Positions 4,731-64,000 of a stretch of 64,000 nt of DNA are shown one piece after another (the stretch's first letter is position 1; every line of letters begins with the position of its first letter). A program made the position numbers and the translations under genes. The notes beneath the pieces are model-generated. The model did not search any database. It was not told the origin of the DNA and saw only the letters and a program-made list of their open reading frames with translations. Source of the stretch: Patescibacteria group bacterium (GTDB taxonomy: Bacteria > Patescibacteriota > Minisyncoccia > Phycocordibacterales > UBA1550); NCBI GenBank assembly GCA_038057125.1, contig JBBUDU010000001.1, positions 997-64,996 on the forward strand, written 5' to 3'.

Positions 4731-4732
4731 AC

Positions 4733-8629: not shown

Positions 8630-8717
8630 GACCGAAAACCGTAAGGGATTGAAAAATTTTCCGACTTAGGGTAGACTCAACAAATTCCACAATTAACTAA
8701 AATAGCAATTTAAACAG

Positions 8718-11486: not shown

Positions 11487-11557
11487 TTGTTTATTATTCT
11501 TTTTTGTGATAAAAAGAATTAGGTTCTTTGATCTTAATTTACGAAGGAGGCAACACA

Positions 11558-12246: not shown

Positions 12247-12284
12247 CTTTTGTGCTCCGCATGTTATGATTGTTTTGTATCATC

Positions 12285-20312: not shown

Positions 20313-20582
20313 ACATAAAAGAAAAAAATAAAAAAAGAGGGGAATGAATGGACCCCGCCGCAAGCGGTGAGGAATTCCTCCGATTAAAATAAAAAAAGAG
20401 GGGATTTAAAATGGGTCAGATTGGGTGGGTGAGCAGGCTTCTCTCCCTCACTTGGACGTAGGGTTTCCAAGTTGGGGGATTTTGGCTTCGCCAAAATCCC
20501 CCATGCACTTGTCCACAGTTACCCGCGCCATATGGCGCAATTTTTCTTTTTACATGATACAATAAAAGCACATAGTATATTT

Positions 20583-26500: not shown

Positions 26501-26702
26501 GTATGTCACCAACCACGCAATCATTCTCCCAAGTTTGAAGCCGGGCACCATCTATCGCCTAAAGGTTACTTCGAGCGACGACAGCGGAAATCTCGGTTCC
26601 TTTGGCCCGCGCACTATCATCACTCCTCAACAGACCGCATCCATTACCGACATTATCTTTAAGAACTTCGAAGATTCATTCAAATTCTTGAAGAAGATTT
26701 AA
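20583..26702 (+). CDS. Giant (~2040 aa) membrane-anchored surface protein with beta-propeller and FN3/PAP-N-like repeats
   Basis: Anchor FIVAVLALVVAGTGVYMY. About 8 repeats GITISPDGTSVYVANxxxNTVSMYSRNTSTGALTAL (YVTN/lactonase-like). About 5-6 NHL-like blades GPxxxAFDASGNLYTANYxxNTVSKITPAG. Seven to eight modules of the form TVxWxTxEPSxSxVxYG...HxVxLTGLxPxTxYxY. Start set at ATG 20583; the listed ORF begins at TTG 20472. Confidence 0.8.
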   Translation: MRNIFHHSTAFIARHKHHHHFIVAVLALVVAGTGVYMYRHELAQAATYTFTQTSWAGGVTTATSTHTSNQSNWTQYSATSTNITAGAGGVSLTSTSKVAGDDGVALSALATPTTASLNSGPRGITTSPDGTSVYARSYDTINMYSRNTSTGALTALATPTIAAAGDPFGITVSPDGISVYAVLAGNASVAMYSRDTSTGALTALGTPTIATESDPLDITISPDGTSVYTVNNASSTISMYSRDTSTGALTALGTPTIAAGDPTGITISPDGTSVYVANYSGNTVSMYSRNMSTGALTALATPTIAAGSYPYGIIISADGISVYATNNGGDTVSMYSRNTGTGALTALATPTIATGTTPIGLFISLDGTSVYVANNSGNTVSMYSRNTSTGALTALATPTIAAGTNPRGITISPDGTSVYVTNYNSGTISMYSRSAYGGALGFAAGTFASTEVSFWAGASSSVGLAQTTTNLNVIHQSGNLSKITTSGTVSTTSVGVTYPNALIFGTDGNLFVANSGGNTIRKVTPGGTVTTFATVGAGPNGPAFDASGNLYTANYDDNTVSKITPAGAVTTFATVGAGPRYLAFDTTGNLYTANYSSSTISKITPAGATTTFATVGAGPYSLAFDASGNLYTANYDANTVSKITPAGAVTTFATGFNCPSSFAFDTAGTLLVGNYCDGVISKVTTGGVTSTFVTIETNPRASTFDKVYASSGTFTSAVINTGVESYFSTLAYTTTLNGQTITVDARAGNTATPDGTWTSWQTGIASGGSISGLSYNRYIQYRANFSTSDTAVTPTLNSVTINYGQYALSGDLTSSKYDTEATANLISNVLWSASSTSASETVRFQVRSSSAGTTWTNWCGPATACDGTDYFTVSTGVSGGIVSGHPLRSDSNDRFLQYKAFLASAGGATPTLTSATVQYVVNAPPVISNITASQGSTGAVTVGYDLADSDNAIGNIVDVTLQYCTTNCSAGSEVWADAVTVSGSVGTGVALGTARSISWTASTDYASQYKSNTQKIRIIADDRDAANNLGYGTSPTFTLDTTVPVITVSKLDSSTGGNAVGTISLTSNDDSTLQYRICNDNTFPSSDTQGNSCAFTTLAASPIATTTIAWIPTGAPSHEFAYLQVRDAYGNVTAQTLVAPAMPADFSYNDVSNTTTGVYREFLSWVPFVATTSSTFGSYKVYHSLDNFATSTLLATITDSSVNYYLHTVTTATTSLQYYRVTSVNALGNVSNFTAIISDIPDGTGGVDTTPPHIPIAGIATPTVGNSSANITFSTYTDTSLSVGELATSTVFYASYTGAVPASCPGTPKVSTNTYTVNHSVYLTGLTPSTQYYYCVVARDISGNVSAATTAVGGTFTTVSGPLITNVTEREITDISALIFWNTNTSSDSKVYFSATSAGVNGATPVNGSVVTVAGSDGAYQHQIGLTGLSAGQTYYYKVTSTDTAGTPITTTNDNNGQYYSFVTLRDTTPPTVSGIATPVLSSNAAVIIWQTNEPSTTQVLWGTASSTYTRNTVIDTTKSIYHIVTLSSGTLDTGSVSQVLTPETTYYFVVRSADDAGNLTTSSQSTLTTPATGSVTITTINVVSSASSGSDTKDTTVPIISNIKVSDITPFAAVVKFDTDEDTVGFVEYGAATTYGETAGDKTMARSHTVRLRGLTLGTEYHIKATAVDKSGNAGTSGDQTFKTTFLSENLKDIANIENIEAFQKEIEAAIESILPSLVPPFVSKPQVLDITENSATITFKTNIKAFPVVVYADDGSYDEKKDNPYTGEISDTAKKSAEHSLKLTGLKGNTKYHIQARAFSLPRVIGKSADVTFITKASKIAGSIVERKKDSFTVVWTTDQPTSSIVEFKNVRSGIIGQKTNEALRTSHSMKIENLPPGTAYIVNISGKTEQGNIAEAGSSISVTTSRDVTPPVITGFKVDNALIPGRTDRIQTIVSWTTDEPSNSTAYYEEGTGTKGDTKELANKNSELTSYVTNHAIILPSLKPGTIYRLKVTSSDDSGNLGSFGPRTIITPQQTASITDIIFKNFEDSFKFLKKI

Positions 26703-26793: not shown

Positions 26794-26837
26794 ACTGTAC
26801 ACGTATAAAAACCTATAGTACTATATACGTGTACAGT
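26794..26837. repeat. Palindromic element abutting the start codon of PaaX-like paralog 2
   Basis: Arms ACTGTACACGTATA / TATACGTGTACAGT around AAAACCTATAGTACTA. About 70 percent identical, in register, to the element at 27387-27436. Confidence 0.85.
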
Positions 26838-27374
26838 ATGAAAAAGTATCAACGCGATGAAATAAAAGAAATAATCCTCTCAACCCTCCTTGTTGCGGGA
26901 GTGATCGCTATCGCTGTTACTATGCCGAATGCGGTGCAACTTTTCAAATACTTCAAACCCAAGAACACATATGATCGCACGCGCATAAAGCAGTCAGTCT
27001 ATCGTCTGGAAAAACAAGGATTTATAAAAAGAAAAGATGCAGGGTATGTTCTTACGGCGAGTGGGACAAAGAAGGCAATCTATTACAAAATAGAATCTAT
27101 GAAGATTGTTCGTCAAAAGGAATGGGATGGTAAATGGCGCATAGTGATGTTTGATGTTCCGGAAGAAAGGAAAATGGCTCGACGCGCAATACACAACGCG
27201 CTCAAAGAACTGGGTTGCGTACAATATCAGAAGTCTGTTTTTGTAACACCTTTTCCGTGCAAAAACGAGGTTGATTTTATAGGAGATTATTTTGGGGTAC
27301 GGGGGAATATTCGAATTATTATTGCAAGTGAGATTGAAGGAGGGAAAATCCTCCGAAATGCCTTTTGCTTGTAA
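26838..27374 (+). CDS. PaaX-like protein (wHTH plus Cas2-like fold), paralog 2
   Basis: WDGKWRIVMFDVPEERKMARRAIHNALKELGCVQYQKSVFVTPF. Collinear similarity to 19280-19828 over its whole length. ATG 26838 preferred over GTG 26829. Confidence 0.55.
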   Translation: MKKYQRDEIKEIILSTLLVAGVIAIAVTMPNAVQLFKYFKPKNTYDRTRIKQSVYRLEKQGFIKRKDAGYVLTASGTKKAIYYKIESMKIVRQKEWDGKWRIVMFDVPEERKMARRAIHNALKELGCVQYQKSVFVTPFPCKNEVDFIGDYFGVRGNIRIIIASEIEGGKILRNAFCL

Positions 27375-27523: not shown

Positions 27524-30500
27524 ATGGCTGATAAAGAAAAAGATACAAAAAATTTGGCGACAGAGGCAGTTCAAGAACCTCAATCGAAAAAACTTTCGGA
27601 TATTTCGATGCGCGAGGAAGAAACTCTTGCGCGCTGGCAGTCCGCGCACATTTTTGAAAAGTCGCTTGACCAAACGAAAGGAGGCGAGGAGTTTATTTTT
27701 TACGACGGTCCGCCATTTGCGACCGGTCTTCCACACTATGGGCACTTTCTTCCAAACTTGATGAAAGATGTGATTCCACGCTACCAGACGATGCGCGGAC
27801 GATATGTTCGACGTGTGTGGGGTTGGGATTGCCACGGGCTCCCAATTGAAAATTTAATTGAAAAAGAGCTCGGGCTCGGGCACAAAAAAGACATAGAGGA
27901 ATATGGTCTTGAAAAGTTTAACGAAGCCTGTCGCGAGTCAGTGTATCGCTATGATACTGAATGGAAAAAAATGATTCCGCGTATTGGGCGATGGGTAGAT
28001 ATGGAACATTCGTACAGTACGATGAATGCAAACTACACCGAGAGCGTGTGGTGGGCTTTTAAAACACTATACGAAAAAGGTCTGGTGTATCAAGGGTTCA
28101 AGTCGATGCACATTTGCCCAAGATGCGAGACGACACTTTCAAACAACGAAATCGCGCTTGGATACAAAGATATTACTGATATTTCGGTAACGATAAAATT
28201 TGAATTGGTTGATGAACCCGGTACATTTATTTTAGCTTGGACGACAACCCCATGGACATTACCCGGCAATGTCGCGCTTGCGGTAAACCATGAGGAGGAG
28301 TATGTGAAAGTTTCCGTTGGAGATGAAAAATATATTTTAGCAAATACGCGCGCGGGAATCGTGTTTGCCGGCAAAGTATATACTGTCCTCGAGCAGATTA
28401 ATGGCGCTGACCTTGTTGGTAAACCATACAAACCTATTTTTGATTATTATTCGCAAGACAATACGATTAAAAATCATAAAAACGGTTGGAAAATATATGC
28501 GGGGGATTTTGTAACGATGGATAGTGGTACCGGCGTGGTGCATATCGCGCCAGCATTCGGCGAGGACGACATGGCGCTTGGTGTCCGTGAAAATTTGCCG
28601 TTTGTGCAACATGTTGCAATGGACGGCACGATGAAAAGTGAAGTGCGTGATTTCGCAGGTGCTTCGGTAAAGCCAAAAGGAGAAAAAAATGACAGCCATC
28701 AGGTGACAGACATCTTGATTATTAAACACCTCGCGCATGCAGGAGCGCTTTTTTCAAAAGAAAAAATAATTCACGCATATCCGCACTGCTGGCGTTGCGA
28801 TACACCACTTTTAAATTACGCGGCAGAGTCATGGTTTGTAAAAGTGCCTGACTTAAAAGACAAACTCCTCGCAGAAAATGCAAAGACATCATGGGTACCA
28901 AAAAATATGCGTGATGGTCGTTTTGGTAAGTGGCTCGAAGGCGCGCGCGATTGGGCTATTTCTCGTTCGCGTTTTTGGGGCGCGCCTATTCCCGTATGGC
29001 AGTGTGAAAAATGCAATGAGCGCAAAGTTTTCGGCTCGCGAGAGGAGCTTTCTGAACACACAAAAAAATCCGGTAATAGATATATTGCAATGCGACACGG
29101 CGAGGCCGAGAGCAATGCGCGCGGTATTGTGAGCTCAAAGATTGACGGAAGCACTTCGTACGGCTTAACGGAAAAGGGACGTCTGTCAGCAGAAAAAGCA
29201 GGCCTCGAGCTTTCAGGAGACAAGATTGACATCATAATCACTTCGCCTTTTGCGCGTACCAAGCAAACTGCAGAAATTGTCGCCAAGGCCATTGGTCTTG
29301 ATGCGCAAAAGATTATTGTCGATGAGCGCGTCAAAGAAATCGATACTGGTATCTTTGACGGAAAACCAATTGCCTTATATCGCGAACACTTCGCTTCTAT
29401 AGAGGAAAAATTTACTAAGCGTCCGGAAAGTGGCGAAAACTTGCTTGATGTAAAGCGTCGTGTAATGTCACTTATATCTGAACTTGAAAACGAACATAAA
29501 GGGAAGACTATTCTGATTGTAACGCACGAATATCCGATATGGATGCTTGCTTCCGGGTCACGTGGTGCTACTGTAAATGAATCTGTCGCGATGCGCGGAG
29601 ACAAAGAAGATTTTCTCGCAACGAGCGGCGTTCTTGATATAAAGTACGCGCCATTTCCGCACAATGCGGATTTTGAATTTGATCTCCATTTGCCGTACAT
29701 AGATACGGTTGAAGTGTCGTGTAAATGCGGAGGGCATATGTCACGCGTGCCATATGTTTTTGACTGCTGGTTTGAGTCCGGCTCGATGCCGTACGCACAG
29801 TTTCATTACCCGTTTGAAAACAAAGAGCTTTTTGAAAAGAATTTTCCAGCAAACTTTATTGCCGAGGGTGTCGACCAAACGCGCGGATGGTTTTATTCTC
29901 TAATGGTTCTTTCCGTTGGACTTTTTGGCAAGGCGCCGTTTAAGAATGTTATCGTGAACGGAATGGTACTCGCGGAGGACGGACAAAAAATGTCGAAGAG
30001 CCGAAAGAATTATCCAGACCCGTGGGATATTTTGAATCAATACGGCGCTGATGCTGTGCGGTATTATTTGCTTTCATCACCAATTGTGCATGCCGAAGAC
30101 CTCGCGTTTCTTCCGCGTGGCGTTGATGAGGTGGTGAAGAAATTTATTATGCGTTTATCCAATGTACTCTCATTTTATGAGCTTTACCGCGTAGAAGAAG
30201 ACACTACAATACATACTCGCGCGCCTAATGTTCTTGACCAGTGGATACTCGCGCGCCTGAAAGAAGTTACTTGTGAAGAAACCGCGGCACTCGACGCGTA
30301 CGAGATCGACCGTGCGGTGAAGCCTCTCAGTCTTTTTGTGGACGACCTATCGACATGGTATCTTCGTCGTTCGCGCGATCGATTTAAGTCTGAAGATGCG
30401 AATGACCGTGCTACCGCTCTCGCGACCACTCGCATTGTGCTTCTTGAGTTTTCAAAACTTATCGCTCCGGTAATGCCGTTTCTCGCGGACCATATTTATT

Positions 30501-31069
30501 TGCGCGCAGGAGGAAAAAAAGAGAGCGTGCACCTTGAAAAATGGAATGAAATGTCTTCAGTAATGTGTGCGGACCATGAAGTCGCAGTCCTTGAAGGAAT
30601 GGCAGAAGCACGCCGTACCGTGTCACTTGCTCTTGAGGCGCGCGCCAAGGCGGGAATAAAAGTTCGTCAACCACTCGCGCGGCTCACGCTTAAAAATGTA
30701 GCGCTCAAAGGCAAGGACGAGTATATTGCACTCATCATAGATGAGGTGAATGTAAAAGAAATTTCGTTTGATGCTACGATTTCCCTAGACGTTATTCTCG
30801 ACACAAATATCACACCCGACTTAAAACGCGAAGGGCAGTTTCGCGATTTGGTACGAACCGTGCAAGGACTCCGAAAAGAAATGAAACTCATGCGAACGGA
30901 CGATATTGTTTTGAAGATAAAAACAACGACAATTGGGAAGGAGCTTGTGGAGACATTTGCTCTGGAATTAAAAAGAGTAGCGTTTATTCGCGAGATTCTG
31001 TTTACAGAAGTAAGCGGAGAAACCGTCGACATTGACGGAGTCACCTTTGTTTTTTTGATAGAGAAGTAG
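27524..31069 (+). CDS. ileS: Isoleucyl-tRNA synthetase (type 2) with an inserted histidine-phosphatase domain
   Basis: PPFATGLPHYGH, KMSKSRKN and the WCISR-like WAISRSRFWG. Insert of ~200 aa at nt 29072-29680 carries RHGEAESN, SPFARTKQTAE and ILIVTHEYPI. Confidence 0.9.
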   Translation: MADKEKDTKNLATEAVQEPQSKKLSDISMREEETLARWQSAHIFEKSLDQTKGGEEFIFYDGPPFATGLPHYGHFLPNLMKDVIPRYQTMRGRYVRRVWGWDCHGLPIENLIEKELGLGHKKDIEEYGLEKFNEACRESVYRYDTEWKKMIPRIGRWVDMEHSYSTMNANYTESVWWAFKTLYEKGLVYQGFKSMHICPRCETTLSNNEIALGYKDITDISVTIKFELVDEPGTFILAWTTTPWTLPGNVALAVNHEEEYVKVSVGDEKYILANTRAGIVFAGKVYTVLEQINGADLVGKPYKPIFDYYSQDNTIKNHKNGWKIYAGDFVTMDSGTGVVHIAPAFGEDDMALGVRENLPFVQHVAMDGTMKSEVRDFAGASVKPKGEKNDSHQVTDILIIKHLAHAGALFSKEKIIHAYPHCWRCDTPLLNYAAESWFVKVPDLKDKLLAENAKTSWVPKNMRDGRFGKWLEGARDWAISRSRFWGAPIPVWQCEKCNERKVFGSREELSEHTKKSGNRYIAMRHGEAESNARGIVSSKIDGSTSYGLTEKGRLSAEKAGLELSGDKIDIIITSPFARTKQTAEIVAKAIGLDAQKIIVDERVKEIDTGIFDGKPIALYREHFASIEEKFTKRPESGENLLDVKRRVMSLISELENEHKGKTILIVTHEYPIWMLASGSRGATVNESVAMRGDKEDFLATSGVLDIKYAPFPHNADFEFDLHLPYIDTVEVSCKCGGHMSRVPYVFDCWFESGSMPYAQFHYPFENKELFEKNFPANFIAEGVDQTRGWFYSLMVLSVGLFGKAPFKNVIVNGMVLAEDGQKMSKSRKNYPDPWDILNQYGADAVRYYLLSSPIVHAEDLAFLPRGVDEVVKKFIMRLSNVLSFYELYRVEEDTTIHTRAPNVLDQWILARLKEVTCEETAALDAYEIDRAVKPLSLFVDDLSTWYLRRSRDRFKSEDANDRATALATTRIVLLEFSKLIAPVMPFLADHIYLRAGGKKESVHLEKWNEMSSVMCADHEVAVLEGMAEARRTVSLALEARAKAGIKVRQPLARLTLKNVALKGKDEYIALIIDEVNVKEISFDATISLDVILDTNITPDLKREGQFRDLVRTVQGLRKEMKLMRTDDIVLKIKTTTIGKELVETFALELKRVAFIREILFTEVSGETVDIDGVTFVFLIEK

Positions 31070-53018: not shown

Positions 53019-53818
53019 CATAGGACTCCTCTACATACATAGGGGAGTCCTATGTAATTCTATGTGATTGCGTGCTATACTGCTAGGTAATCATGCAAAG
53101 AAAATTTTCGTTTTCAGTCGATGAATATTATCATCTCTATAATCGCGGAACGGACAAGCGTGTCATATTTATGGATGATGAGGATTACGAGCGGTTTATC
53201 AGCCTTATGTTCGTTTGTAATTCAGATCAGAGTATAATCTTTCGCGACATCCCCATAGGACTCCCCTATGTATTTGAGAGAGGTGATACTTTGGTTGATA
53301 TTGGAGCATATTGTTTAATGCCAAATCATTTCCATTTCCTAATTCGAGAAAAAATAGATGGTGGAATCACAAAGTTTATGAGTAAACTTATGACTGCGTA
53401 TTCTATGTACTTTAATAAAAAATATAAGCGCACAGGCAGCCTGTTTGAGGGGTGCTTCAAGGCAAAGCATGCCAATACTGACGAATATTTGAAGTATCTT
53501 TTTGCATATATACACTTGAATCCAGTAAAAATTATTGATCCAAAATGGAAAGAAAATGGAATTAGCAACAAAGCAGTAGCCAAAGAATACCTTGCAGAAT
53601 ATAAATATTCGAGTTATCCGGAATATTTGGGTGTTTTGCGTGAAGAGGGGAAGATCATTAATAGGGCAGCCTTCCCAGAGTACTTCGAACAGCCGCAAGA
53701 TTTTGAAGGATTTATTAAGGATTGGATTTCATTCGCTGATAGCCAGTAGCAAGCAAGTCCCCTTAGCCCCCATAGGACTCCCCTATGTGTACATAGGGGA
53801 GTCCTATGGGGGCTAAGG
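53019..53818 (+). mobile_element. RAYT-type unit: HUH/Y1 transposase gene flanked by related hairpins
   Basis: Left hairpin CATAGGACTCC (53019-53029) / GGAGTCCTATG (53044-53054). Right 58-nt palindrome at 53761-53818 has a 28-bp stem and the same CATAGGACTCC core. Confidence 0.65.
53093..53749 (+). CDS. REP-associated tyrosine transposase-like protein (IS200/Y1 HUH family)
   Basis: HUH motif YCLMPNHFHFLI. Catalytic Tyr context FAYIHLNPVK. 218 aa. Confidence 0.75.
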   Translation: MQRKFSFSVDEYYHLYNRGTDKRVIFMDDEDYERFISLMFVCNSDQSIIFRDIPIGLPYVFERGDTLVDIGAYCLMPNHFHFLIREKIDGGITKFMSKLMTAYSMYFNKKYKRTGSLFEGCFKAKHANTDEYLKYLFAYIHLNPVKIIDPKWKENGISNKAVAKEYLAEYKYSSYPEYLGVLREEGKIINRAAFPEYFEQPQDFEGFIKDWISFADSQ

Positions 53819-56288: not shown

Positions 56289-59200
56289 ATGCCTAAGTAC
56301 TGCTCAAAAATATGTAAAACAATCATTGTGGTATTTTTATTGCCACTAATTTCGTTTGCTCAGACGAATAACGTAACCTGTTTAAAGAGTGGATACACAA
56401 TTGAAGCAATTAATGGAATTTTTACAAAAGAAGGTAGTCCCGATGGTAATGACGGTGCCAAAGCAAACATGAAAGCTTTAAAAGAACATCTACGACTTTC
56501 TGTCTATGATGGTGAGCCTGTCACCATTGACTACCTATACAACCCAACCCGCGGATTTTTTGGTGTAATCGACCTCACTGACACCGCCATCCAAAAAACT
56601 TTCGAAGGGGTTGATATGGGGGACCCTGATTTCCTTAAGATTCTCAACGACGCAAGCGCACAGGTTAAAACTCAAAAACTCCTTGTTGTTGCCCACTCAC
56701 AGGGCAATTTCTATGCCAACAATTTTTATGAAACAGTAACTAAAAGCGGTGATGTCTCAGCTAATTCAATAGGTGTATACAGTGTTGCAACCCCTGCTAG
56801 CTATGTGGCCGGAGGAGGAAAGTATCGTACTTCAAACACTGATACTGTTATTAATCGCGCGAGAAAGGCCCTTCCTGGAACATTTTTGCCAGCACACGAC
56901 AGTATAAACTACAAAGAATCAGACGATTCTGGTAGAGGACATGGATTTCGTGAAATATATTTAGAATATCGTGGTGAAGAAATTAAAAAAGAAATAGAAG
57001 AATCTTTGAGTAAATTAACTATTGATCCGTCTCGCACTGAAAACACACACTGCATCAATCCACCAATGGCACTTTCCACTTTTAAAAAAGTAGCCAATGC
57101 TATTGTTTATCCGGTTGGCGCTACTATATCTGTTGGCGCAGTTGCTCTTACTGCAAGAAAAAATGCAATCATTGATTCTGCAATATTGGCAATTAAAAAA
57201 GGAGCACCTGTCGTAATAGGAACCTATACAGTTTCGGTGGATATTGCGAGATGGACATATAATACCTCTCTTGCTGTGGCCGTGTGGACATACAACACAG
57301 GCGTGACAGCCGCAAAGACTGTCGGGCAAGTTACTTACACGGTTTCCTCTGCCGTGTATTCTGCTCTTACTTCTGCTTTCACTAGCCCCACGTTTGTGGA
57401 CAGCAATACAGCTGGGCCGATTTTTGCGACGCAACCCAAACCACAGCTCCAACCACAAAACACACAGACTAAGCCAACTGTAAACGCAATTGTTATCGAT
57501 AAAAAAACACCATCAACATTGACATTACAATTGCCGGACAGCAATCCACAGCCGCAGCCTCAAACAGTTTTTGTATTTGAGCCGAAGGTGCGGGCGGGAA
57601 CAAATGAGCCAACGCTTGTATTTGTTGGGTCGTTTGGAGGCGGGCCTGTTCAGCAGGTGATGGGAACACAAGCGACGGTTTCTGGTGCGGATGAGGTTGT
57701 TACGACAGTGGAAACGATTGGGAATGCGGGCGCGGCCATGGCCGCGCCCGTATTATCCGCACCTCAGTGCGCGCAAACTCTCGCGACCGACGGCTGTCTT
57801 CTCGCCACCACGACTGTACGTTTTGACTGGGTAGCCATAGGCGCGGACCATTATTTAATTAATAAAAACGGTGAATTTTCCACCACAACTGACACCACGT
57901 TCTCTCCTACGATAAAAGATTTTTCAGATTACACACTTGAGGTTGTTGCCATTGATTCAGTCGGCAACGCAAGCGCTACAAGCACGCAAAAAGTTTCGGT
58001 AGCAAGCATCCCCATCGCTATCAACGAAATCGCGTGGATGGGGACTGTGGCATCCACAACGAGGGAGTGGTTTGAGCTAAAAAATAATACCACGCACACA
58101 ATAGACCTTTCGCAGTGGGAGTTAAGAGCAAAAGAAGGAGCACCACATATAAAGTTTACTAAGACGATTGCTCCGCATGCGTATCTTATCTTTGAACGCA
58201 TCGACAATACCACTGTCAGTGATATCGAAGCTCATCAAACATATAAAGGTTCACTTGAAAACTCGGGTAAACAACTAAATCTTTCGTATGCATCTACGAC
58301 TTTCGACCAAACTCCTACAGGCAAATGGGCTGGTGGTTACAACAGTACTACATCAAGACAAACAATGGAACGCTATTCCTCGCGAGAGTCTGGCACCGAC
58401 CCTGAAAACTGGGGCACAAATCTCGGCTATATTAAAAATGGCATTGATGCGAATGGGAAAGAAATCGAAGGCACCCCAGGCGCGCAAAATTCCGTAAGCA
58501 CACTCATCAACAAAGGGCAGGACATTACGAGCGACTTCACACTCACGGCGGACGAGGAGCGGTATGTGGTCCCGAATCAATTATGGGTTGATGCTTCAAG
58601 CACGCTTACAATCGAGCCGGGTGTTGTGATCCAATTTTATAGCGGAGGAGTGTGGGTTAATGGAGAAATTGACGCGCGCGGAACTGCAGAAAACCCAATC
58701 ATTTTCAACTCTTTTTCTAAAAAACGGGCGGGTGATTTTTGGATTGACAATGCCACGGGTACAAGCACATTTGAACACGCACGTTTTGAAAACATGAATA
58801 CTGTTTTTACTGTTGATGGAGGGGTCCTTGAAATTCGCAATTCGGAATTTGTGAACACCGAAGGTGGAGTAGGCGTGTCTGGCGCGAGCTCAACTGTTTT
58901 GATTGAGAATACCAATTTTGCGAGCTCCACTAGCGACACTATTGGTGTGTACAATGGTGGCATTGTGCGCATCGCATCTTCGACAATTACAAACCAACTT
59001 GATGGAGATGCAATCGGGGTTTATGGCGCAGCACTTTTAATGGCTTCGACGACAATTGACGGTGTGCACGACGGCAACGGCATAGGCGCTTACGATTCTT
59101 TCGTTTCGGTTGCATCCTCGACAATACGAAATACAGAAGGCGATGCGATTGGATCTTATTACAGCACGATGACTATTGCGTCAACGACGATTGATGGCGT

Positions 59201-59783
59201 GTCTGATGGCAGTGGCGTTGCTGTGTATGGCGGTACACTTTCAATCGCAAGTTCAACTATTCGGAATGTTTCAGGTGGTGGGATATCGCTCTACTCTGCA
59301 ACATCAACGATTTCTAATGTTACTGTTGAAAATACTGGATATGTTGGTATTGAAGTGGGTGGTGGAACTACAACGATCACAGGTACAACTGTTTCTGGTG
59401 TAGATGGATGGGCGGGCATCTATGTTGATGAAGGAGCACTATCAATCTCTAGTTCAACAATAAAAAATGTAGCGGATTATGGGATATATGTCGATAAGGC
59501 GACGTCGACTATTTCAAACGTGGTGGTAGAAAATGGCGGCGGTACCGGCATCGATATTTATCAAGGAAATGCGACTGTCACAGATACGACAGTGTCGGGG
59601 TTTGTAGACAGTGGTATTTCGGTGGACTCTCCGTCTGAGCCAGTTGTCATAATGGGAGGAGAAATTTCAGGAAACGCCATTGGTGTGGAGATGGATCATG
59701 CAGATTCTGTAATAATTACTGATGAATCATCGGTGCATGACAACATTATTGACATAGTTACTTTGCCTGAACCAACAGCCTAA
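56289..59783 (+). CDS. 1164-aa secreted multidomain protein: lipase-like alpha/beta hydrolase, lamin-tail domain, right-handed beta-helix
   Basis: Signal-like N-terminus. Nucleophile elbow VVAHSQGN. P/Q-rich linker. LTD pattern IAINEIAWMGT...REWFELKNNT...IDLSQWEL...ENSGKQLNL. More than 10 PbH1-like repeats (ASSTIxNxxGxGIxVY). Confidence 0.6.
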   Translation: MPKYCSKICKTIIVVFLLPLISFAQTNNVTCLKSGYTIEAINGIFTKEGSPDGNDGAKANMKALKEHLRLSVYDGEPVTIDYLYNPTRGFFGVIDLTDTAIQKTFEGVDMGDPDFLKILNDASAQVKTQKLLVVAHSQGNFYANNFYETVTKSGDVSANSIGVYSVATPASYVAGGGKYRTSNTDTVINRARKALPGTFLPAHDSINYKESDDSGRGHGFREIYLEYRGEEIKKEIEESLSKLTIDPSRTENTHCINPPMALSTFKKVANAIVYPVGATISVGAVALTARKNAIIDSAILAIKKGAPVVIGTYTVSVDIARWTYNTSLAVAVWTYNTGVTAAKTVGQVTYTVSSAVYSALTSAFTSPTFVDSNTAGPIFATQPKPQLQPQNTQTKPTVNAIVIDKKTPSTLTLQLPDSNPQPQPQTVFVFEPKVRAGTNEPTLVFVGSFGGGPVQQVMGTQATVSGADEVVTTVETIGNAGAAMAAPVLSAPQCAQTLATDGCLLATTTVRFDWVAIGADHYLINKNGEFSTTTDTTFSPTIKDFSDYTLEVVAIDSVGNASATSTQKVSVASIPIAINEIAWMGTVASTTREWFELKNNTTHTIDLSQWELRAKEGAPHIKFTKTIAPHAYLIFERIDNTTVSDIEAHQTYKGSLENSGKQLNLSYASTTFDQTPTGKWAGGYNSTTSRQTMERYSSRESGTDPENWGTNLGYIKNGIDANGKEIEGTPGAQNSVSTLINKGQDITSDFTLTADEERYVVPNQLWVDASSTLTIEPGVVIQFYSGGVWVNGEIDARGTAENPIIFNSFSKKRAGDFWIDNATGTSTFEHARFENMNTVFTVDGGVLEIRNSEFVNTEGGVGVSGASSTVLIENTNFASSTSDTIGVYNGGIVRIASSTITNQLDGDAIGVYGAALLMASTTIDGVHDGNGIGAYDSFVSVASSTIRNTEGDAIGSYYSTMTIASTTIDGVSDGSGVAVYGGTLSIASSTIRNVSGGGISLYSATSTISNVTVENTGYVGIEVGGGTTTITGTTVSGVDGWAGIYVDEGALSISSSTIKNVADYGIYVDKATSTISNVVVENGGGTGIDIYQGNATVTDTTVSGFVDSGISVDSPSEPVVIMGGEISGNAIGVEMDHADSVIITDESSVHDNIIDIVTLPEPTA

Positions 59784-59784
59784 T

Positions 59785-59866
59785 AACTTTCTGCCAAGCC
59801 CCGCCATCGAATCAGCTGATTCGTGTCTCGGACATGAAATATTTAGGTGGGGCTTGGCAGAAAGTT
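59785..59866. repeat. Nested hairpin overlapping the end of the 56289 gene
   Basis: Perfect 18-bp arms AACTTTCTGCCAAGCCCC / GGGGCTTGGCAGAAAGTT enclose the 16-bp palindrome CGAATCAGCTGATTCG. No T-tract follows. Confidence 0.8.
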
Positions 59867-59950
59867 GCCAACAGTAAAATTAGTTGTTTTGTATGTGCGT
59901 TGGTATAATTAATTATTAAACAATATATGTATACAGGTCTTTAAAATCAT

Positions 59951-60445
59951 ATGGAAAAAATCATTACTAAAAAAATATTATTAATAATTGTTGTAATTGT
60001 TGTGATTGGGTGGTTTGCAATGTCATCTTTTAATACTCCTGCTGATACTATTAGCACGGAAACTGTGTCAGAAACAGCAACATCAACCAATACAGTAACA
60101 AAGGTCACAACGCCTGTGAAAAAGACCGTGGCACCAGTCGCTAGTCAGCCTGTGTCAATGAGCTATCAGAAGGCACTAGAGATTTACAAAGACAACAAGC
60201 GCATACAGATTAGTGGTGCGGATTTTTGCCAAGCGTCTCCCAATAATGTGATGTATAAAAATGGTACGAGCATTATGATTGACAATCGCTCTTCCCAAAC
60301 TCGTACTATAAAAATTGATGGTACTTATACAATAGAAGGGTATGGTTTTAGGATAGTTAAGCTTTCAAGCGCAACCTTGCCTGCTACGTTCCTTATGGAT
60401 TGCAATAAACAGCAAAACATAGCGAAGATTCTCCTCCAGAAATAA
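59951..60445 (+). CDS. Membrane-anchored/secreted hypothetical protein
   Basis: 164 aa. Anchor ILLIIVVIVVIGWFAM and a Thr-rich linker. Confidence 0.5.
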   Translation: MEKIITKKILLIIVVIVVIGWFAMSSFNTPADTISTETVSETATSTNTVTKVTTPVKKTVAPVASQPVSMSYQKALEIYKDNKRIQISGADFCQASPNNVMYKNGTSIMIDNRSSQTRTIKIDGTYTIEGYGFRIVKLSSATLPATFLMDCNKQQNIAKILLQK

Positions 60446-60455
60446 CTCTTTAAAT

Positions 60456-60491
60456 AAAGGACCGCCCTTTATTTGAAAAGGGCGGTCCTTT
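60456..60491 (+). terminator. Intrinsic terminator
   Basis: AAAGGACCGCCCTTT-ATTTGAA-AAGGGCGGTCCTTT. Confidence 0.75.
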
Positions 60492-60533
60492 ACCGTACAT
60501 TTGAACACTAATAACTCATGGTATAATTAAAAC

Positions 60534-60677
60534 ATGAAGGAAATAGCCAAAACCATCGCAGGGTTTGCAGTGATTTTGCTCGTGGGGCTTGCCGGTGTGA
60601 CTATTTCAAATGTTATGAAACTTGGGGACATGAACGCAACCATTACGACGGTTGACAACATCACCAACACACGCTAA
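60534..60677 (+). CDS. Possible 47-aa single-TM micro-protein (leaderless)
   Basis: TTGAAC-15 nt-TGGTATAAT ends 6 nt before ATG 60534. Encodes MKEIAKTIAGFAVILLVGLAGVTISNVMKLGDMNATITTVDNITNTR. Below the ORF-track size cut-off. Confidence 0.35.
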   Translation: MKEIAKTIAGFAVILLVGLAGVTISNVMKLGDMNATITTVDNITNTR

Positions 60678-60689
60678 TATAACCCCGAA

Positions 60690-60809
60690 GCCCGAAGAAG
60701 TAGGCAGTTCCAGAGAAATGGAGCAATAAGCCCTGCGGAGGTCGACTCATATCCTGAAAAGGATTGGCTTTTGGCCCGAACGCTTTGCGTTCGGGCCACT
60801 CAAAATATC
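60690..60809 (+). promoter_or_regulatory. Candidate L10 (rplJ) autoregulatory leader
   Basis: Structured untranslated stretch just upstream of rplJ. Hairpins ATCC-TGAAAA-GGAT (60751-60764) and GGCCCGAACGC-TTT-GCGTTCGGGCC (60773-60797). Confidence 0.3.
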
Positions 60810-61316
60810 ATGGCAATTACAAAACAAAAGAAAACAGAACTTATTGCGTCAATGAAAGAACGCCTTCTAGGCGCAAAGTCAATCGTATTCGTAAACTTCA
60901 AAGCACTCTCGGTCGCTGAAACAAAAATTCTTCGCAGGAAGCTTTTAGCGGATCATATTGGGTATTTTGTGTCAAAAAAGACTTTGGCAAAGCGTGTTCT
61001 CGGTGACCTCAAAGCAAAAGGCAATATGCCAGAGCTTCCAGGCGAGCTTGCAATGGCATACGGAGACGATCTCCTTGCTCCTGCGCGCGAGACTTACGCC
61101 TTCCAAAAGACTCCTCGCAACAAGGGTTCGATTTCAATCGTCGGTGGTATCTTTGACGGAGAATACAAAACACAGGACGAAATGATGGCAATTGCTACAA
61201 TTCCACCACTTCAGGTACTCCGTGGAATGTTTGTAAACCTCATCAATTCACCAATTCAGCGTTTGGTTGTTGTGACCGAGGAAATTCGCAAGAGTAAGGA
61301 AGCAAGGCCGAATTAG
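60810..61316 (+). CDS. rplJ: 50S ribosomal protein L10
   Basis: MAITKQKKTELIASMKERLLGAKSIVFVNFKALSVAE. Start trimmed to ATG 60810. Confidence 0.9.
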   Translation: MAITKQKKTELIASMKERLLGAKSIVFVNFKALSVAETKILRRKLLADHIGYFVSKKTLAKRVLGDLKAKGNMPELPGELAMAYGDDLLAPARETYAFQKTPRNKGSISIVGGIFDGEYKTQDEMMAIATIPPLQVLRGMFVNLINSPIQRLVVVTEEIRKSKEARPN

Positions 61317-61397
61317 CAAATTCTGAACCAACAGGTTCACGTCATGGACGAAGACTCTTGGACGAAAACAAAACTTTAACAATTAACAATAAATATT

Positions 61398-61793
61398 ATG
61401 ACAGAAGAAAAAAAAGACGTAGTAATTCCAGCAAAGTTCAAAGACCTTGTTGAGAAAATCGAGACAATGTCGGTTCTCGATCTTCACGAGCTCGTAAAGG
61501 TGCTCGAAGAGAAGTTTGGCGTGTCTGCAGCGGCAGTCGCAGCAGCTCCAGTAGCAGGCGCAGGCGTAGTGGCAGAAGAAAAGGACTCGTTTAATGTAGA
61601 ACTTACAGCATCAGGTGAGACGAAAATCGCCGTTATTAAGGTGGTAAAGGAGGTCCTCGCCCTTGGTTTGAAAGAAGCAAAGGATCTCGTAGATGCAGCT
61701 CCTTCAATGCTTAAAGAGGGAATGAAGAAGGCAGAAGCAGATGAATTCAAGAAGAAGCTTGAAGCAGCAGGTGCTAAAGTTACTTTGAAGTAA
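61398..61793 (+). CDS. rplL: 50S ribosomal protein L7/L12
   Basis: Ala-rich hinge [14 protein letters not shown]-terminal domain [24 protein letters not shown]...[12 protein letters not shown]. Confidence 0.95.
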
Positions 61794-61949
61794 CTTTAGC
61801 GACTGCTGGGGAGGGGGTCGGGGAACGGTAGTTCCCCGTGGAGGAGAGCAGTGAGCTCACCAGAGCGAGCGTTGAGAACCGTGGGTTCTCAAGGAGGCGT
61901 TTCGCCGACGGTTGGTGCGAAGGTTACTCTTAAGTAACTTTAGCGACTG
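61770..61949 (+). repeat. 36-bp direct repeat of the rplL 3' end flanking a GC-rich structured segment
   Basis: 61770-61805 and 61914-61949 match at 32 of 36 positions, offset exactly 144 nt. Both encode GAKVTLK-stop. Confidence 0.9.
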
Positions 61950-61955
61950 TTTTGA

Positions 61956-61992
61956 AAAAGTGGGGGTTGCCGACGGCAACCCCCACTTTTTC
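61956..61992 (+). terminator. Intrinsic terminator after the second rplL-end copy
   Basis: AAAAAGTGGGGGTTGCC-GAC-GGCAACCCCCACTTTTT. Confidence 0.85.
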
Positions 61993-62024
61993 TTTTGTAC
62001 ATATAAAATGCTATAATTCTCGCC

Positions 62025-62645
62025 ATGGATACTCTAGGAAAATTATTTGGAAGTCAGGCGCGGGTGAAGATTTTGCGCTTGTTTATCTTGAACCCTCTCG
62101 AAGTATACGATGTGGCGATGGTCGCAGAAAAGAGCAAAGTGTCCGTTTCAGAGACAAGGCGCGAGCTGACACTCATTAAATCTTCCGGAATTTTAGTTAA
62201 TAAATCATTTTTCAAAGAAATAATATCAAAGCGGAGTAAGAATAGTAAACCCAAAAAGAAGCGTGTAGTGGGCTTTCAGCTTAAGACAACATTTCCGCTA
62301 CTTTCTGCCATTAAAAACCTTGTTGTTTTAGGGACGCCGTTGAACCGTGATGAAATCGCCCGTCGTTTAAAAAATGTTGGAAAGATTAAATTTCTAGCTA
62401 TTTCTGGCATCTTTATTGATGAACCCGAGGCTCGCGTAGACGTGCTTATTGTGGGAGATGGGCTTAAAAAGCGCTCTATCGAGAATGTTTTACGCACTAT
62501 CGAGGCCGAAATAGGAAAAGAGCTTTCATATGGAGCATTAGAAACCCCGGAGTTTCTTTATCGCGTGAGTGTGTACGACAAATTTGTCCGTGATGTTCTC
62601 GATTTCCGCCACGACCGAATTATCGATAAACTTGGGGTCGAATAG
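62025..62645 (+). CDS. Hypothetical protein with an N-terminal ArsR-like wHTH
   Basis: LFGSQARVKILRLFILNPLEVYDVAMVAEKSKVSVSETRRELTLIKSSGIL. 206 aa. Confidence 0.5.
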   Translation: MDTLGKLFGSQARVKILRLFILNPLEVYDVAMVAEKSKVSVSETRRELTLIKSSGILVNKSFFKEIISKRSKNSKPKKKRVVGFQLKTTFPLLSAIKNLVVLGTPLNRDEIARRLKNVGKIKFLAISGIFIDEPEARVDVLIVGDGLKKRSIENVLRTIEAEIGKELSYGALETPEFLYRVSVYDKFVRDVLDFRHDRIIDKLGVE

Positions 62646-62658
62646 TTTTATTGGTGAA

Positions 62659-62705
62659 AGTTATCCACAGGGTGCTTGCGGGGCGCCCCCTCTTAACGGT
62701 ATAAT
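62659..62705 (+). promoter_or_regulatory. Promoter with an upstream AGTTATCCACAG box
   Basis: TTATCCACA at 62661-62669. -35 TTGCGG at 62676-62681, 18-nt spacer, TATAAT at 62700-62705. Confidence 0.55.
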
Positions 62706-62863
62706 GGTTGCAGGAATCAAATCCTCGCGTTCGCGCTTCGTACTCTACATTGAGTGGCGGGTCGAGGACGGAGCGCGACGGAATTGGTTGCACGAATATT
62801 ATTAGTTTTAGTTTTTAACATAATGTTTACACGCAGGGGAACCTGTGTTTAGCAAAAAAAGAT

Positions 62864-63556
62864 ATGCCTATTATTTCAGACTGGGGGGTACAGCTTAGCG
62901 ATGCATTCACTGGTATTGGCGTACAAGTGTTGCAGTTTCTTCCAAAACTCCTCCTCGCCATCATTATTTTTATCGCAGGATGGGTTGTTGGTTCAGTTCT
63001 TGCCGAGGTTGTATCAAAGATTGTGAAAGCAGTCAAGATTGATTCAATTCTAGAGAGCGCCGGAGCAAAGGGCCTCCTCGAAAAGGCAGGATTCAACCTT
63101 AACACAGGCGCGTTCCTTGGCGGTTTGGTTAAGTGGTTTATTATTATCGTATTCCTCGTTACTGCGTTTGATATTCTCAAGCTCGAAGCAGTAAACGCAT
63201 TTTTGTCTAATGTTATTCTCGGATATATTCCACAAGTTATTGTTGCAACATTAATTTTGGTTGTTGCTGCAGTTCTTGCTGATCTTACACAAAAGATTAT
63301 GACTGGAGGCGCACGCGCTCTTGAGTCAAAGCACTCAGGATTGGTTGGCGGTGTAGCTCGTTGGTCAATCTGGATTGTTGCAATTCTTGCGGCATTGAAT
63401 CAGCTCGGTATCGCAGGTGGAATGATGCAGACTCTTTTCACTGGTCTTGTTGCTATGCTCGCTCTTGCAGGCGGTCTTGCATTCGGTCTTGGTGGCAAAG
63501 AAGCAGCAGCGCGTTTTATTGAGAAACTCCGTGGCGACATCTCGAATCGCAGCTAG
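62864..63556 (+). CDS. Membrane protein with repeated TM-helix motifs (MscS-N-terminal-like)
   Basis: Repeated helices of the type LPKLLLAIIIFIAGWVVGSVLAEVVSKIV. 230 aa. Confidence 0.55.
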   Translation: MPIISDWGVQLSDAFTGIGVQVLQFLPKLLLAIIIFIAGWVVGSVLAEVVSKIVKAVKIDSILESAGAKGLLEKAGFNLNTGAFLGGLVKWFIIIVFLVTAFDILKLEAVNAFLSNVILGYIPQVIVATLILVVAAVLADLTQKIMTGGARALESKHSGLVGGVARWSIWIVAILAALNQLGIAGGMMQTLFTGLVAMLALAGGLAFGLGGKEAAARFIEKLRGDISNRS

Positions 63557-63600
63557 TTTTAGGGTAGAATTCGGAATCTGGAAGTAGAAATTTAGAAGAG

Positions 63601-63628
63601 AAAAACCCGCCCTTGAGGCGGGTTTTTC
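63601..63628 (+). terminator. Intrinsic terminator
   Basis: AAAAACCCGCC-CTTGA-GGCGGGTTTTTC. Confidence 0.85.
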
Positions 63629-63678
63629 TGTATATTTACCATATTCTATTTTCCAAATTCCACATTCCGCTCAAAGGC

Positions 63679-63706
63679 TTGACATAGCTTTCCTTTTGTA
63701 TATAAT
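63679..63706 (+). promoter_or_regulatory. Near-consensus sigma-70-type promoter
   Basis: TTGACA (63679-63684), 16-nt spacer, TATAAT (63701-63706). Confidence 0.6.
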
Positions 63707-63712
63707 GGCTGG

Positions 63713-63799
63713 ATTGTTGCATATGAGCAAAACAGAAAATCTTAGGCGGGAATAGGGGGGCTTTTGGCCGCTCGTTGCCCGCTTTATGCGGGTTTTTTC
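63713..63799 (+). ncRNA. Candidate ~85-nt small RNA or terminated leader
   Basis: Bounded by the promoter above and the terminator GCCCGC-TTTAT-GCGGGTTTTTT (63777-63799). Only a 10-codon ORF with no ribosome-binding site inside. Confidence 0.3.
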
Positions 63800-64000
63800 T
63801 TTTCTCATCGATTGAATTTTGACAATTTAATGCTGTCACGCACACCCGTTTACTGGGTCTTGTGGTGTGTGTAGGCAGGCAGGTAAATAACAAAAGTCCA
63901 CGTTTTAAGCAAGCGTGGCAGCCGAGCACCACTACTGGTGCTCGGGAACAAATAATGATTGTGGTTTTTAAATTTCCTAATAAGAAATTTAAGAGCATAT

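Follow-up and report, generated by a model that had tools for sequence, protein, structure and literature searches.

The rplL locus

This report concerns a short insertion at the 3' end of rplL, the gene for ribosomal protein L7/L12, in a 64,000-nucleotide (nt) stretch of a Patescibacteria group bacterium (GenBank assembly GCA_038057125.1, contig JBBUDU010000001.1, positions 997 to 64,996 of the forward strand), which is called the window throughout. RplL homologues with 85-95% identity occur in Yonathbacteria-like genomes, and the host is a Patescibacterium near Candidatus Yonathbacteria. An earlier note, made from the letters of the window only, had observed that the end of rplL recurs shortly after the gene, and had suggested that the second copy is the ancestral gene end and the first a replacement brought in by an inserted element. 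The features from which the argument starts are these:

61398..61793, + strand: rplL, ribosomal protein L7/L12, 131 amino acids (aa); open reading frame (ORF), with Pfam domains Ribosomal_L12_N and Ribosomal_L12 on an identical protein
61770..61805, + strand: direct repeat copy 1, 36 nt, GGTGCTAAAGTTACTTTGAAGTAACTTTAGCGACTG; repeat search, family D1
61914..61949, + strand: direct repeat copy 2, 36 nt, GGTGCGAAGGTTACTCTTAAGTAACTTTAGCGACTG; repeat search
61954..61992, + strand: intrinsic terminator of the rplJ-rplL unit, a perfect 19-bp stem with a T-run; inverted repeat I2, folding and terminator scan

Copy 1 consists of the last 21 coding nucleotides of rplL, its stop codon and 12 nt beyond. 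It equals copy 2 at 32 of 36 positions (89%), and the two copies start 144 nt apart. All four differences (GCT/GCG, AAA/AAG, TTG/CTT) are synonymous, so that both copies encode GAKVTLK-stop; the probability that four random substitutions would leave no nonsynonymous codon is about 0.002. The 108-nt insert between the copies (61806-61913) has a GC content of 64%, compared to 44.5% for the window as a whole, and is present only once in the 64 kb. Folding is strong: as RNA, 61794-61995 gives z = -5.8 relative to shuffled sequence, and as single-stranded DNA (ssDNA) the two strands of 61767-61910 give z = -9.9 and -8.9. The repeat, its spacing, the purely synonymous differences and the GC-rich, folded insert are thus as the earlier note had described them, and so is the placement of the sole good terminator, since the only terminator-like site 3' of rplL (61954-61992) lies beyond copy 2. 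The position of this terminator is kept in rplL alleles that lack the insertion, where the stem sequences differ, and the terminator is the host's own, outside the element. The 45-codon open frame that follows rplL has, by a rough estimate, a chance of about 30% at the GC content of the insert.

Independent assemblies of five metagenome samples, made with two pipelines, show this arrangement. These independent assemblies exclude an artefact, including the collapsed or chimeric assembly that the earlier note had considered, and the duplicated rplL end with its GC-rich insert is genuine and not due to chance.

Anatomy of the element

Comparison of the two gene ends moves the boundaries slightly from those of the 36-nt repeats and divides the locus as follows:

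61767..61910, + strand: inserted element, 144 nt from junction to junction (each +/- 2 nt), delimited by the starts of new-end and old-end homology at 61767 and 61911
61767..61793, + strand: new gene end (c1), GCA GGT GCT AAA GTT ACT TTG AAG TAA; end comparison
61788..61808, + strand: X' (AAGTAACTTTAGCGACTGCTG), which repeats the new gene end in inverted orientation; inverted repeat I3, 21 nt, 90% complementary, and folds
61814..61909, + strand: conserved core; covariance model R1, 107.6 bits
61819-61838, 61855-61866, 61872-61892 and 61896-61906, + strand: core hairpins P1, P2, P3 and P4, respectively; covariance model R1
61911..61937, + strand: displaced old gene end (c2), GTT GGT GCG AAG GTT ACT CTT AAG TAA; reads GAKVTLK-stop at the ancestral position before the terminator

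Within the element, a new gene end and its inverted copy are followed by a linker and the core, and the whole stretch is missing from empty alleles. The functional gene is rplL at 61398-61793, with its last nine or so codons supplied by the inserted element, and c2 is no longer part of rplL, being an untranslated relic ahead of the host terminator. Except at the junction codon, c1 differs from the old end only synonymously. It is identical in both strains of the species, and c2 is the only polymorphic stretch within 291 nt between these two Hainich strains, with six differences, of which the four in codons are synonymous.

X' pairs with 61765-61785, which places the base of the hairpin at the left junction, and it overlaps the last codon and the stop codon of rplL. 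The core (61814-61909) reads, in order, GGGGTCG, P1, GGAGGAGAGCAG, P2, P3, GGAG, P4 and GAC; P3 is TTGAGAACC-GTG-GGTTCTCAA, and the core terminates with CGAC at 61906-61909, as it does in all other copies. Two hairpins that had been proposed from the window alone have to be redrawn. The pairing CTGCT...AGCAG is not conserved, and CTGCTG is instead the end of the inverted gene-end copy, in a hairpin with arms 61765-61785 and 61788-61808. The second hairpin, drawn as the palindrome GTGAGCTCAC, gives way to the conserved hairpin GCTC-ACCA-GAGC (61855-61866).

The ORF listing of the window contains no ORF in the 144-nt element, and ARAGORN found no tRNA and no tmRNA in the insert. A search of Rfam, as the earlier note had advised, yielded only matches in the terminator region (E<=10, 61300-62100), and Rfam at the gathering threshold on five other loci yielded only rRNA. 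The final 12 nt of copy 2 (61938-61949, CTTTAGCGACTG) resemble an X' segment and may be a relic of an earlier unit or a product of gene conversion; the former possibility is suggested by comparison with the stacked units of locus L105 (see below), whose copy 2 retains an X' and a core of its own.

Empty and filled alleles among relatives

The empty-site alleles that the earlier note had proposed to look for were found in related genomes. In loci L088, L090 and L092-L101, the gap between rplL and the next gene, a conserved 206-aa gene in these contigs, is only 96-107 nt. Filled sites are those of the window, L001-L004, L089/L091 and L102-L117, and the corresponding gaps are 231 nt in the window, 259 nt in L089/L091, 278 nt in L086 and about 523 nt in the P0058 lineage. 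The empty locus L088 encodes an RplL that is 95% identical to that of the window. A particularly close pair is formed by L089 (filled) and L090 (empty), which encode identical RplL proteins, with 100% identity over more than 1 kb of either flank. Their divergence is confined to a patch that comprises the last 45 nt or so of rplL, an insert homologous to that of the window, copy 2 and about 30 nt beyond. The insertion is thus polymorphic among near-identical genomes, and filled alleles pass between strains as short patches of homologous recombination, since the L089/L090 patch allows such a transfer to be seen directly.

The stretch past copy 2 aligns with the post-stop sequence of the empty alleles, from which it follows that the ancestral end is the second copy, now displaced, and that the first arrived with the insert. 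This supports the suggestion of the earlier note on both counts. The second copy keeps the ancestral position relative to the terminator, the downstream promoter and the downstream gene, and the status of the first copy as a replacement end follows from the empty alleles in near-identical relatives and from the presence of the same core at unrelated genes.

Homologous or analogous inserts separate the two gene ends by 144, 155 (L089), 159 and 180 nt. The in-frame spacing to which the earlier note had drawn attention is therefore real in the window (144 nt) and unconserved in its relatives, and the hint of readthrough into an extended L7/L12 is unsupported, given the 155-nt spacing in L089. The inserts of the window and L089 differ by compensatory changes in the stems and by further changes in the loops. 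When the insert was compared by blastn to the window and to 85 rplL loci from species-representative genomes, no copy was found outside close relatives; the best genome match has an RplL that is only 72% identical.

In the P0058 lineage (for example L105, GCA_002783825.1 PFIZ01000036.1, 1860-2230), two element units follow rplL in series. L102-L117 carry a third, decayed gene end that reads GAKATLV-stop, so that the locus holds a fossil series of successive insertions. From the two stacked units and the decayed third end it follows that newer units enter at the functional end and push older ones downstream. In core B of L105, a long terminator-like hairpin stands in place of P2.

A second, unrelated core of about 150 nt occupies the same rplL site in L086 (2899-3080; GCA_016215205.1 JACRKU010000003.1). 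Before it lies a perfect 17-bp hairpin with the stop codon at its centre, and after it a displaced old end. In L113 (4779-4890, minus strand; region 4520-4890), a relative of it adjoins a 5S rRNA gene, beside a decayed partial 5S copy. The layout of hairpin and displaced end may thus be common to several core families.

Comparison of window positions 58398-64000 with L001, L003 and L004 uncovered clusters of 6-13 single-nucleotide polymorphisms within 30-120 nt (8-22% divergence), in a mosaic with identical stretches of 0.3-1.1 kb. Such mosaic divergence of strains is a sign of frequent recombination over short tracts in this groundwater population.

Copies at other genes

The core of the element is present at the ends of at least six other kinds of gene besides rplL in metagenomes of Patescibacteria that are Yonathbacteria-like. 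A scan of metagenome DNA with one exact pattern located it at the 5' end of fusA (L115) and at the 5' end of a gene for a GT4 glycosyltransferase (L113), and in both cases the reading frame of the old N-terminus stays open into the antisense strand of the core. A profile search of protein collections with the antisense-core peptide LLENPRFST...GKLQFSRPLS retrieved 21 and then 33 spurious small ORFs (54), each with an old N-terminus fused to the antisense core. These N-termini are those of EF-G (M.RDYPLEKVRNFGIIA), TypA/LepA-type GTPases (MEIRNIAIIA, IRNFSIIA), RNase HI (YTDGGARGNPGP), MurD (KKITVMGLG) and GT4 enzymes, and some of the small ORFs run into tRNA genes. The DNA of seven further copies confirms the core at other genes, including the following, which were inspected as DNA:

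L118, 2501-2674: rnhA
L119, 2501-2692: murD
L120, 186-341: typA
L121, 3001-3201: GT4 glycosyltransferase gene
L122: tRNA-Gln
L123, 2548-2790: tRNA-Phe

No match to the element was found among viral contigs, phage records or plasmid records. A concatenated six-frame peptide query, aimed at sense-strand ORFs or an autonomous relative, gave no match either, which is uninformative.

In the 5'-end copies (L118-L121), the old start codon opens an upstream ORF of 49-66 aa that comprises the old N-terminus and the antisense core and stops 5-35 nt before the new start codon, which itself sits in the loop of the hairpin between X' and the part of the new end, X, with which it pairs. This configuration suggests that translation of the host gene may depend on coupling to the upstream ORF.

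The two tRNA loci have peculiarities of their own. L122 (ERZ27313042 k141_474113) is a 558-nt contig with tRNA-Gln, a terminator, a segment complementary to the T-arm, the core, and an old rplL end with its terminator. It is a chimera with a tRNA-type left part and an rplL-type right part, the product either of recombination between two copies in one genome or of a join made inside the core during assembly. In L123 (JGI 3300073871), the core is preceded by a good sigma-70-like promoter (TTTCCA-17-TATAGT) and followed by a complete tRNA-Phe gene, which starts directly after P4; the contig ends before any new copy becomes visible. To judge from this order, the core would be transcribed as a leader of the tRNA and released by RNase P.

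Most displaced GTPase ends (P0122-P0142; L115 4527-4540) have the junction-side P-loop His changed to Pro, Gln or Arg, so that they read IIAP, IIAQ or IVAR, and the remainder of the old N-terminus is intact. The change may have been inherited with the element as a mark, may be a footprint of the mechanism, or may result from selection against re-targeting.

Shared architecture and fold

In the orientation of the element, every copy has the same layout of gene body, junction, new end, X', a linker of 2-9 nt, core and old end. The new gene end stops exactly at the start or stop codon. X' complements the junction-proximal part of its own new end, over 9-15 nt exactly and up to 23 nt in total, and the base of the hairpin that these two segments form lies 0-3 nt from the junction. 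X' is in every copy a better match to its own new end than to the old end. Without exception, the gene body flanks the element on the side of X', which makes the element co-directional with rplL, a 3'-end target, and opposite to the 5'-end targets fusA, typA, rnhA, murD and GT4. Both the multi-target family and the inverted target copy carried by the element are invisible from the sequence of the window alone.

The insertion points lie in DNA that encodes strongly conserved motifs (the P-loop AH(I/V)|D, GNPGP, GLG and the C-terminus of L7/L12), and independent copies within one target class have their junction at the same nucleotide. The copies have no short motif in common to the left of their junctions, and a search for a second guide-like match of at least 7 nt between core and target gave nothing consistent. 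Pairing of X' with the chromosomal flank, compared to pairing with the element's own 3' end as in a circle-junction model, differs by 0-3 extra pairs in either direction.

The core consensus runs AAGGGGTCG, P1, G..GGAGAGCAG, P2 (variable), CG, P3, GGAG, P4 (variable) and CGAC, and is followed directly by the old end. The conserved core is about 95 nt long, and P3 (consensus TTGAGAACC-nnn-GGTTCTCAA) is essentially invariant. Seven copies went into covariance model R1, with which eleven copies reach 49-109 bits and the decayed core B of L105 reaches 26 bits. In an alignment of 12 sequences, pairing holds for 94% of cells, and both sides change in 10 of 26 pairs, counts that are somewhat inflated because the alignment was fitted to R1. 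None of 500 shuffles reaches the observed level of covariation, and slid controls fall to 42-59%. The covariation of P1 and P4 is also seen in a plain MAFFT alignment.

Eleven comparisons of new and old ends gave 46 synonymous and 7 nonsynonymous codon differences; for fusA, the ends have about 30% nucleotide divergence, with 13 synonymous differences and 1 nonsynonymous difference in 17 codons. The similarity stops at the start or stop codon. Mostly synonymous differences together with similarity that ends at the start or stop codon show that both ends were shaped by protein selection in different lineages. The two ends are thus orthologous gene ends from different lineages, as opposed to a fresh target duplication, and the element travels with the gene end of a previous host.

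Mobility, possible integration and alternative explanations

The stretch 61767-61910 is very probably a mobile, gene-end-restoring, non-coding element. It is non-autonomous and is inserted in the conserved last codons of rplL, and the gene is kept intact by the element's own copy of these codons. Once the element resides in a gene family, natural transformation and RecA would suffice for its further spread, because the displaced old end and the gene body provide two conserved homology arms. The stacking of units fits recombination that pairs the old end of a donor with the functional end of a recipient, and the chimeric L122 fits recombination between cores. For one core to have come to lie at six or more unrelated genes, with precise termini and an X' that fits in each case, we infer a separate integration step.

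That this step depends on the hairpin and uses ssDNA is a possibility that can be put forward only tentatively. On first arrival, a single-stranded form of the element would be used, the hairpin of new end and X' would mimic a duplex target, and an enzyme supplied in trans would exchange strands at the junction. Folded DNA, rather than RNA, is most likely the form in which the core acts; DNA-level action is favoured because the pairs are nearly all Watson-Crick, both strands fold equally well and the strand read by the host differs between targets. G-U pairs occupy only a few cells of the alignment, mostly in decayed copies. Host transcription reads the sense strand of the core at rplL and the antisense strand at 5'-end targets, and no sigma-70-like promoter was found upstream of the sense core in the 5'-type copies. 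A broader proposal, again speculative and somewhat doubtful, is that the copies represent a hitherto unrecognised class of protein-less micro-transposons whose target is programmed by nucleic-acid complementarity. X' would then serve as a guide that docks the folded single-stranded element on a conserved motif-coding sequence a few codons from the gene terminus, and retargeting would need only a new X' and a new replacement end. If true, this would be a natural site-specific insertion of about 100 nt, guided by DNA (or RNA), that homes to essential genes across Patescibacteria.

Several observations weigh against the favoured interpretation. Because no transposase, integrase or reverse transcriptase is linked to the element, the chemistry of integration is conjectural, and domain searches of about 50 ORFs of the window found no integrase, DEDD transposase or reverse transcriptase. 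The window does encode RecA, RecO, SSB, FtsK and one IS200-like Y1 transposase, but the CATAGGGGAGTCCTATG palindromes of the Y1 gene are unrelated to the element, and this motif occurs nowhere else in the window or in 122 loci. Neither an excised or circular form nor a fresh insertion with identical ends was seen in the material analysed. All of the strain-level differences examined are explicable by homologous recombination alone, and only the presence of the core at unrelated genes calls for a dedicated integration step. Copy number is low, with one copy in 64 kb. The 5'-type copies were found via called ORFs, which biases the sample toward intact old ends and an open antisense frame. As most copies came to light in this way, 5'-end targets are over-represented too. 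The inflation of the covariation counts mentioned above belongs here as well, as does the lack of the closing GUCG...CGAC pairing in the divergent copy L121.

The first alternative to be weighed dispenses with a dedicated enzyme altogether. A few rare illegitimate events would have created the arrangement, and its later spread would rest solely on natural transformation and RecA recombination, the conserved homology arms being gene body and old end; compact self-folding would loop the 144 nt out of the heteroduplex. The L089/L090 patch, with boundaries of the recombination type on both sides, and the mosaic strain divergence throughout the locus are in its favour, as are the stacked units and the chimeric L122, which are expected from recombination between copies or ends. 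The same can be said of the change from His to Pro, Gln or Arg in many GTPase old ends, which is expected if that part travels with the element, and of the presence of recA, recO and ssb in the window. This explanation is nevertheless unlikely, although its probability is appreciable. It leaves unexplained how a single core with precise termini (AAGGGGTCG...CGAC) could arrive at six or more unrelated genes with an X' and a replacement end suited to each of them, why the unrelated core of L086 has the same layout, and why P3 is invariant, and recombination alone confers no transmission advantage. An enzyme in trans is supplied by the quite unlikely alternative of a miniature IS200/IS605 derivative, akin to palindrome-associated transposable elements (PATEs) or REPINs, that is moved by a Y1 HUH transposase such as that encoded at 53093-53749. 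The ends of IS608 base-pair with their cleavage sites. The present element consists of successive hairpins and folds on either DNA strand, its left end likewise pairs with the flank or target, and a Y1_Tnp gene lies 8 kb away. That gene's own CATAGGGGAGTCCTATG palindromes are dissimilar to the element, however, no tetra- or pentanucleotide is common to the left of the junctions, IS200/IS605 elements carry no target copies, and the low copy number is again unfavourable.

The direct repeats could also be the attL and attR sites of a tyrosine-integrase island at the rplL 3' end that has lost nearly all of its DNA, much like the remnants known as cis-mobilizable elements (CIMEs). Gene-end direct repeats with synonymous differences are typical of integrase elements, such as phage 21 and e14 at icd. 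The rplL 3' end is a proven integrase target: the attachment site of the ICESa2603 family at this position is TTATTTAAGAGTAAC, whose reverse complement GTTACTCTTAAATAA encodes VTLK-stop (PMC4735348). The old end in the window has GTTACTCTTAAGTAA, which is nearly the ICESa2603 site. This origin is nonetheless very unlikely, as the supposed leftover is a conserved, covarying unit of constant size at many genes, different targets would require different integrases and yet have one core, X' would have no role, and no integrase is found in the window or beside any copy. A structured RNA that benefits the host, be it a stabiliser in the 3' untranslated region (UTR), a small RNA or a leader, with an incidental duplication of the gene end, would account for co-transcription with rplL up to the sole terminator after copy 2 and for a strong fold with covariation. 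The earlier note had offered a structured 3'-UTR RNA as its alternative, with the vertical conservation that this entails, but the element is present or absent among genomes with identical RplL and has copies at other genes, where the 5'-end copies are read by the host on the opposite strand and have no promoter before the sense strand. With hardly any G-U pairs and no Rfam match besides, this alternative is largely refuted, and the chance that it is right is slight indeed. A recoding signal, by readthrough or ribosome hopping, that yields an extended or alternative L7/L12 would make sense of the in-frame spacing of 144 nt and of a hairpin that spans the stop codon. Two stops (TAA, TAG) intervene, however, the homologous insert of L089 puts its gene ends 155 nt apart and hence out of frame, and other copies are at 5' ends of genes on the opposite strand; recoding can be set aside as next to impossible, together with an assembly artefact, which is contradicted by the five independent samples.

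A number of further candidates were rejected outright. The differences between the repeats (T/G, A/G, T/C, G/T) are not confined to template adenines, as they would be for a diversity-generating retroelement, and the window has no reverse transcriptase. A target-site duplication conflicts with the synonymous differences and with a repeat that ends at a start or stop codon. In hairpin opening of the P-nucleotide type the loop would be copied, and it is not. For a 3' guide of the TnpB type, the junction-proximal codons of the old end are non-native and there is no common transposon-associated motif, and for a nuclease with a 5' guide of the Cas9/IscB type, X' matches its own new end perfectly and would target itself. 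A group II intron or another self-splicing or self-cleaving RNA is at odds with the lack of an Rfam match and with a gene end that is duplicated and not split. Programmed bypass or readthrough was dismissed on the unconserved frame of the 144-, 155-, 159- and 180-nt spacings.

Other features of the window

The Y1 gene (53093-53749, + strand) encodes a 218-aa protein with a Pfam Y1_Tnp match of 35.7 bits (cutoff 23) and an NCBIfam match to REP-associated tyrosine transposase (RAYT; REP_Tyr_transpos) of 36 bits, which is below the cutoff. It is flanked by perfect CATAGGGGAGTCCTATG palindromes at 53019-53054 and 53771-53808 and has an internal copy at 53254-53270, an arrangement like that of RAYT/REP or IS200 units. 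A 1181-aa isoleucyl-tRNA-synthetase-like protein (27524-31069, + strand; tRNA-synt_1, Anticodon_1) has a His_Phos_1 domain (residues 522-685) inserted in the middle of its catalytic domain. Two paralogous proteins of 181-182 aa with a PaaX-central/Cas2-like domain (19280-19828, - strand, and 26829-27374, + strand) enclose a secreted-type giant of 2076 aa (20472-26702, + strand; beta-propeller lactonase, purple acid phosphatase N-terminal, fn3). The usual ribosomal protein cluster is split, with nusG-rplK (8084-9140) about 50 kb from rplJ-rplL (60771-61793) and no rpoB after rplL. Two thymidylate kinase genes are found in tandem (11528-12196 and 12270-12923).

Significance and comparison with known systems

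If the interpretation as a mobile, gene-end-restoring element is true, then gene ends can be targeted and restored without an integrase island of many kilobases, and about 100 nt of folded DNA with a short target copy and its inverted copy would be enough. The copies would also provide a testable case of complementarity-based target choice in a non-coding element, with bearing on the evolution of guided recombination (IS200/IS605, IS110) and on programmable insertion tools. On this view, a parasite resides within the most conserved motifs of essential genes, including the GTPase P-loop, the active-site region of RNase H and the C-terminus of L7/L12. Such target sites are common across lineages, as are those of inteins and homing introns, but here nothing is spliced out. 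For annotation of the Candidate Phyla Radiation (CPR), the displaced ends are a source of spurious small ORFs (54 retrieved), pseudo-starts and pseudo-stops, and the 5'-end copies place an upstream ORF and a hairpin before essential genes, which probably alters their translation. No description of such an element was found in the literature, incompletely covered, in which only integrative and conjugative elements (ICEs) at rplL and the work on seeker RNA came up.

Small non-autonomous palindromic insertions in or near coding regions that spare the gene are well known as miniature inverted-repeat transposable elements (MITEs) and Rickettsia palindromic elements (RPEs), and the present element is like them in this respect. 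In MITEs the terminal inverted repeats are fixed, and the target duplications are short, of constant length and identical when they arise, whereas here the flanking gene-end copies are 20-57 nt long and end at a start or stop codon, and the arms formed by X' and the old end change with the target. RPEs, for their part, are translated in frame. The miniatures of IS200/IS605 (PATEs) and the REPINs that accompany RAYT are also short, non-coding, hairpin-rich units, in which an internal segment pairs with the flank, and a similar role for X' may be drawn by analogy. IS200/IS605 pairing involves 4 nt and a target tetranucleotide, in contrast to the present pairing of 10-23 nt, the absence of a common tetranucleotide and the replacement gene end that is carried along. 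These miniatures act as ssDNA, and folding of both strands, pairs that are almost all Watson-Crick and a use of strands independent of host transcription suggest indirectly that the present element may do so too.

Target choice by complementarity and a structured non-coding part of 70-170 nt recall the bridge or seeker RNA of IS110/IS1111 elements. Natural retargeting occurs with the seeker RNA of these elements, and the donor must sit in its own target sequence (10.1101/2024.04.26.591405). IS110/IS1111 elements encode a DEDD transposase and use two short split RNA guides, one for each target strand; the present element has no ORF and one contiguous arm, which is complementary to a single strand. 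Comparable in layout are the attC sites of integrons and the attP(+) site of CTX phages, which belong to the integrative mobile elements exploiting Xer (IMEX). In these systems an ssDNA hairpin presents a duplex site, and structure outweighs sequence. The layout predicted after integration of the attC or attP(+) type, with a new half-site, loop, inverted half-site, element and old half-site, matches the present one, a likeness of structure from which a similar route might be suspected. In the attC and CTX systems one site is fixed (attI or dif) and the recombinase, IntI or XerCD, is known, while the paired sequence differs here with each target gene.

Functionally closest are the integrase-borne elements of gene ends, which include the ICESa2603/Tn5252 family at rplL, islands at dusA, tRNA and tmRNA genes, and phage 21 and e14 at icd. 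Like them, the present element enters the terminal codons of a housekeeping gene, supplies a replacement end and can stack in tandem, and the displaced end forms a direct repeat with mainly synonymous differences. As with ICESa2603, the target overlaps the VTLK-stop attachment sequence. The integrase elements carry an integrase, usually with an excisionase, beside one attachment site, but neither the present copy nor the other copies have one nearby. One family of such elements uses one conserved attachment core, whereas here one element core is found at many targets, with junction sequences that have nothing in common. Unlike those elements, the present one is 144 nt long, has a folded non-coding core with no ORF and no gene cargo, and carries an inverted target copy that forms a terminal hairpin. 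The element is thus akin to the gene-end-restoring integrative elements, yet without their integrase, their single attachment core and their size.

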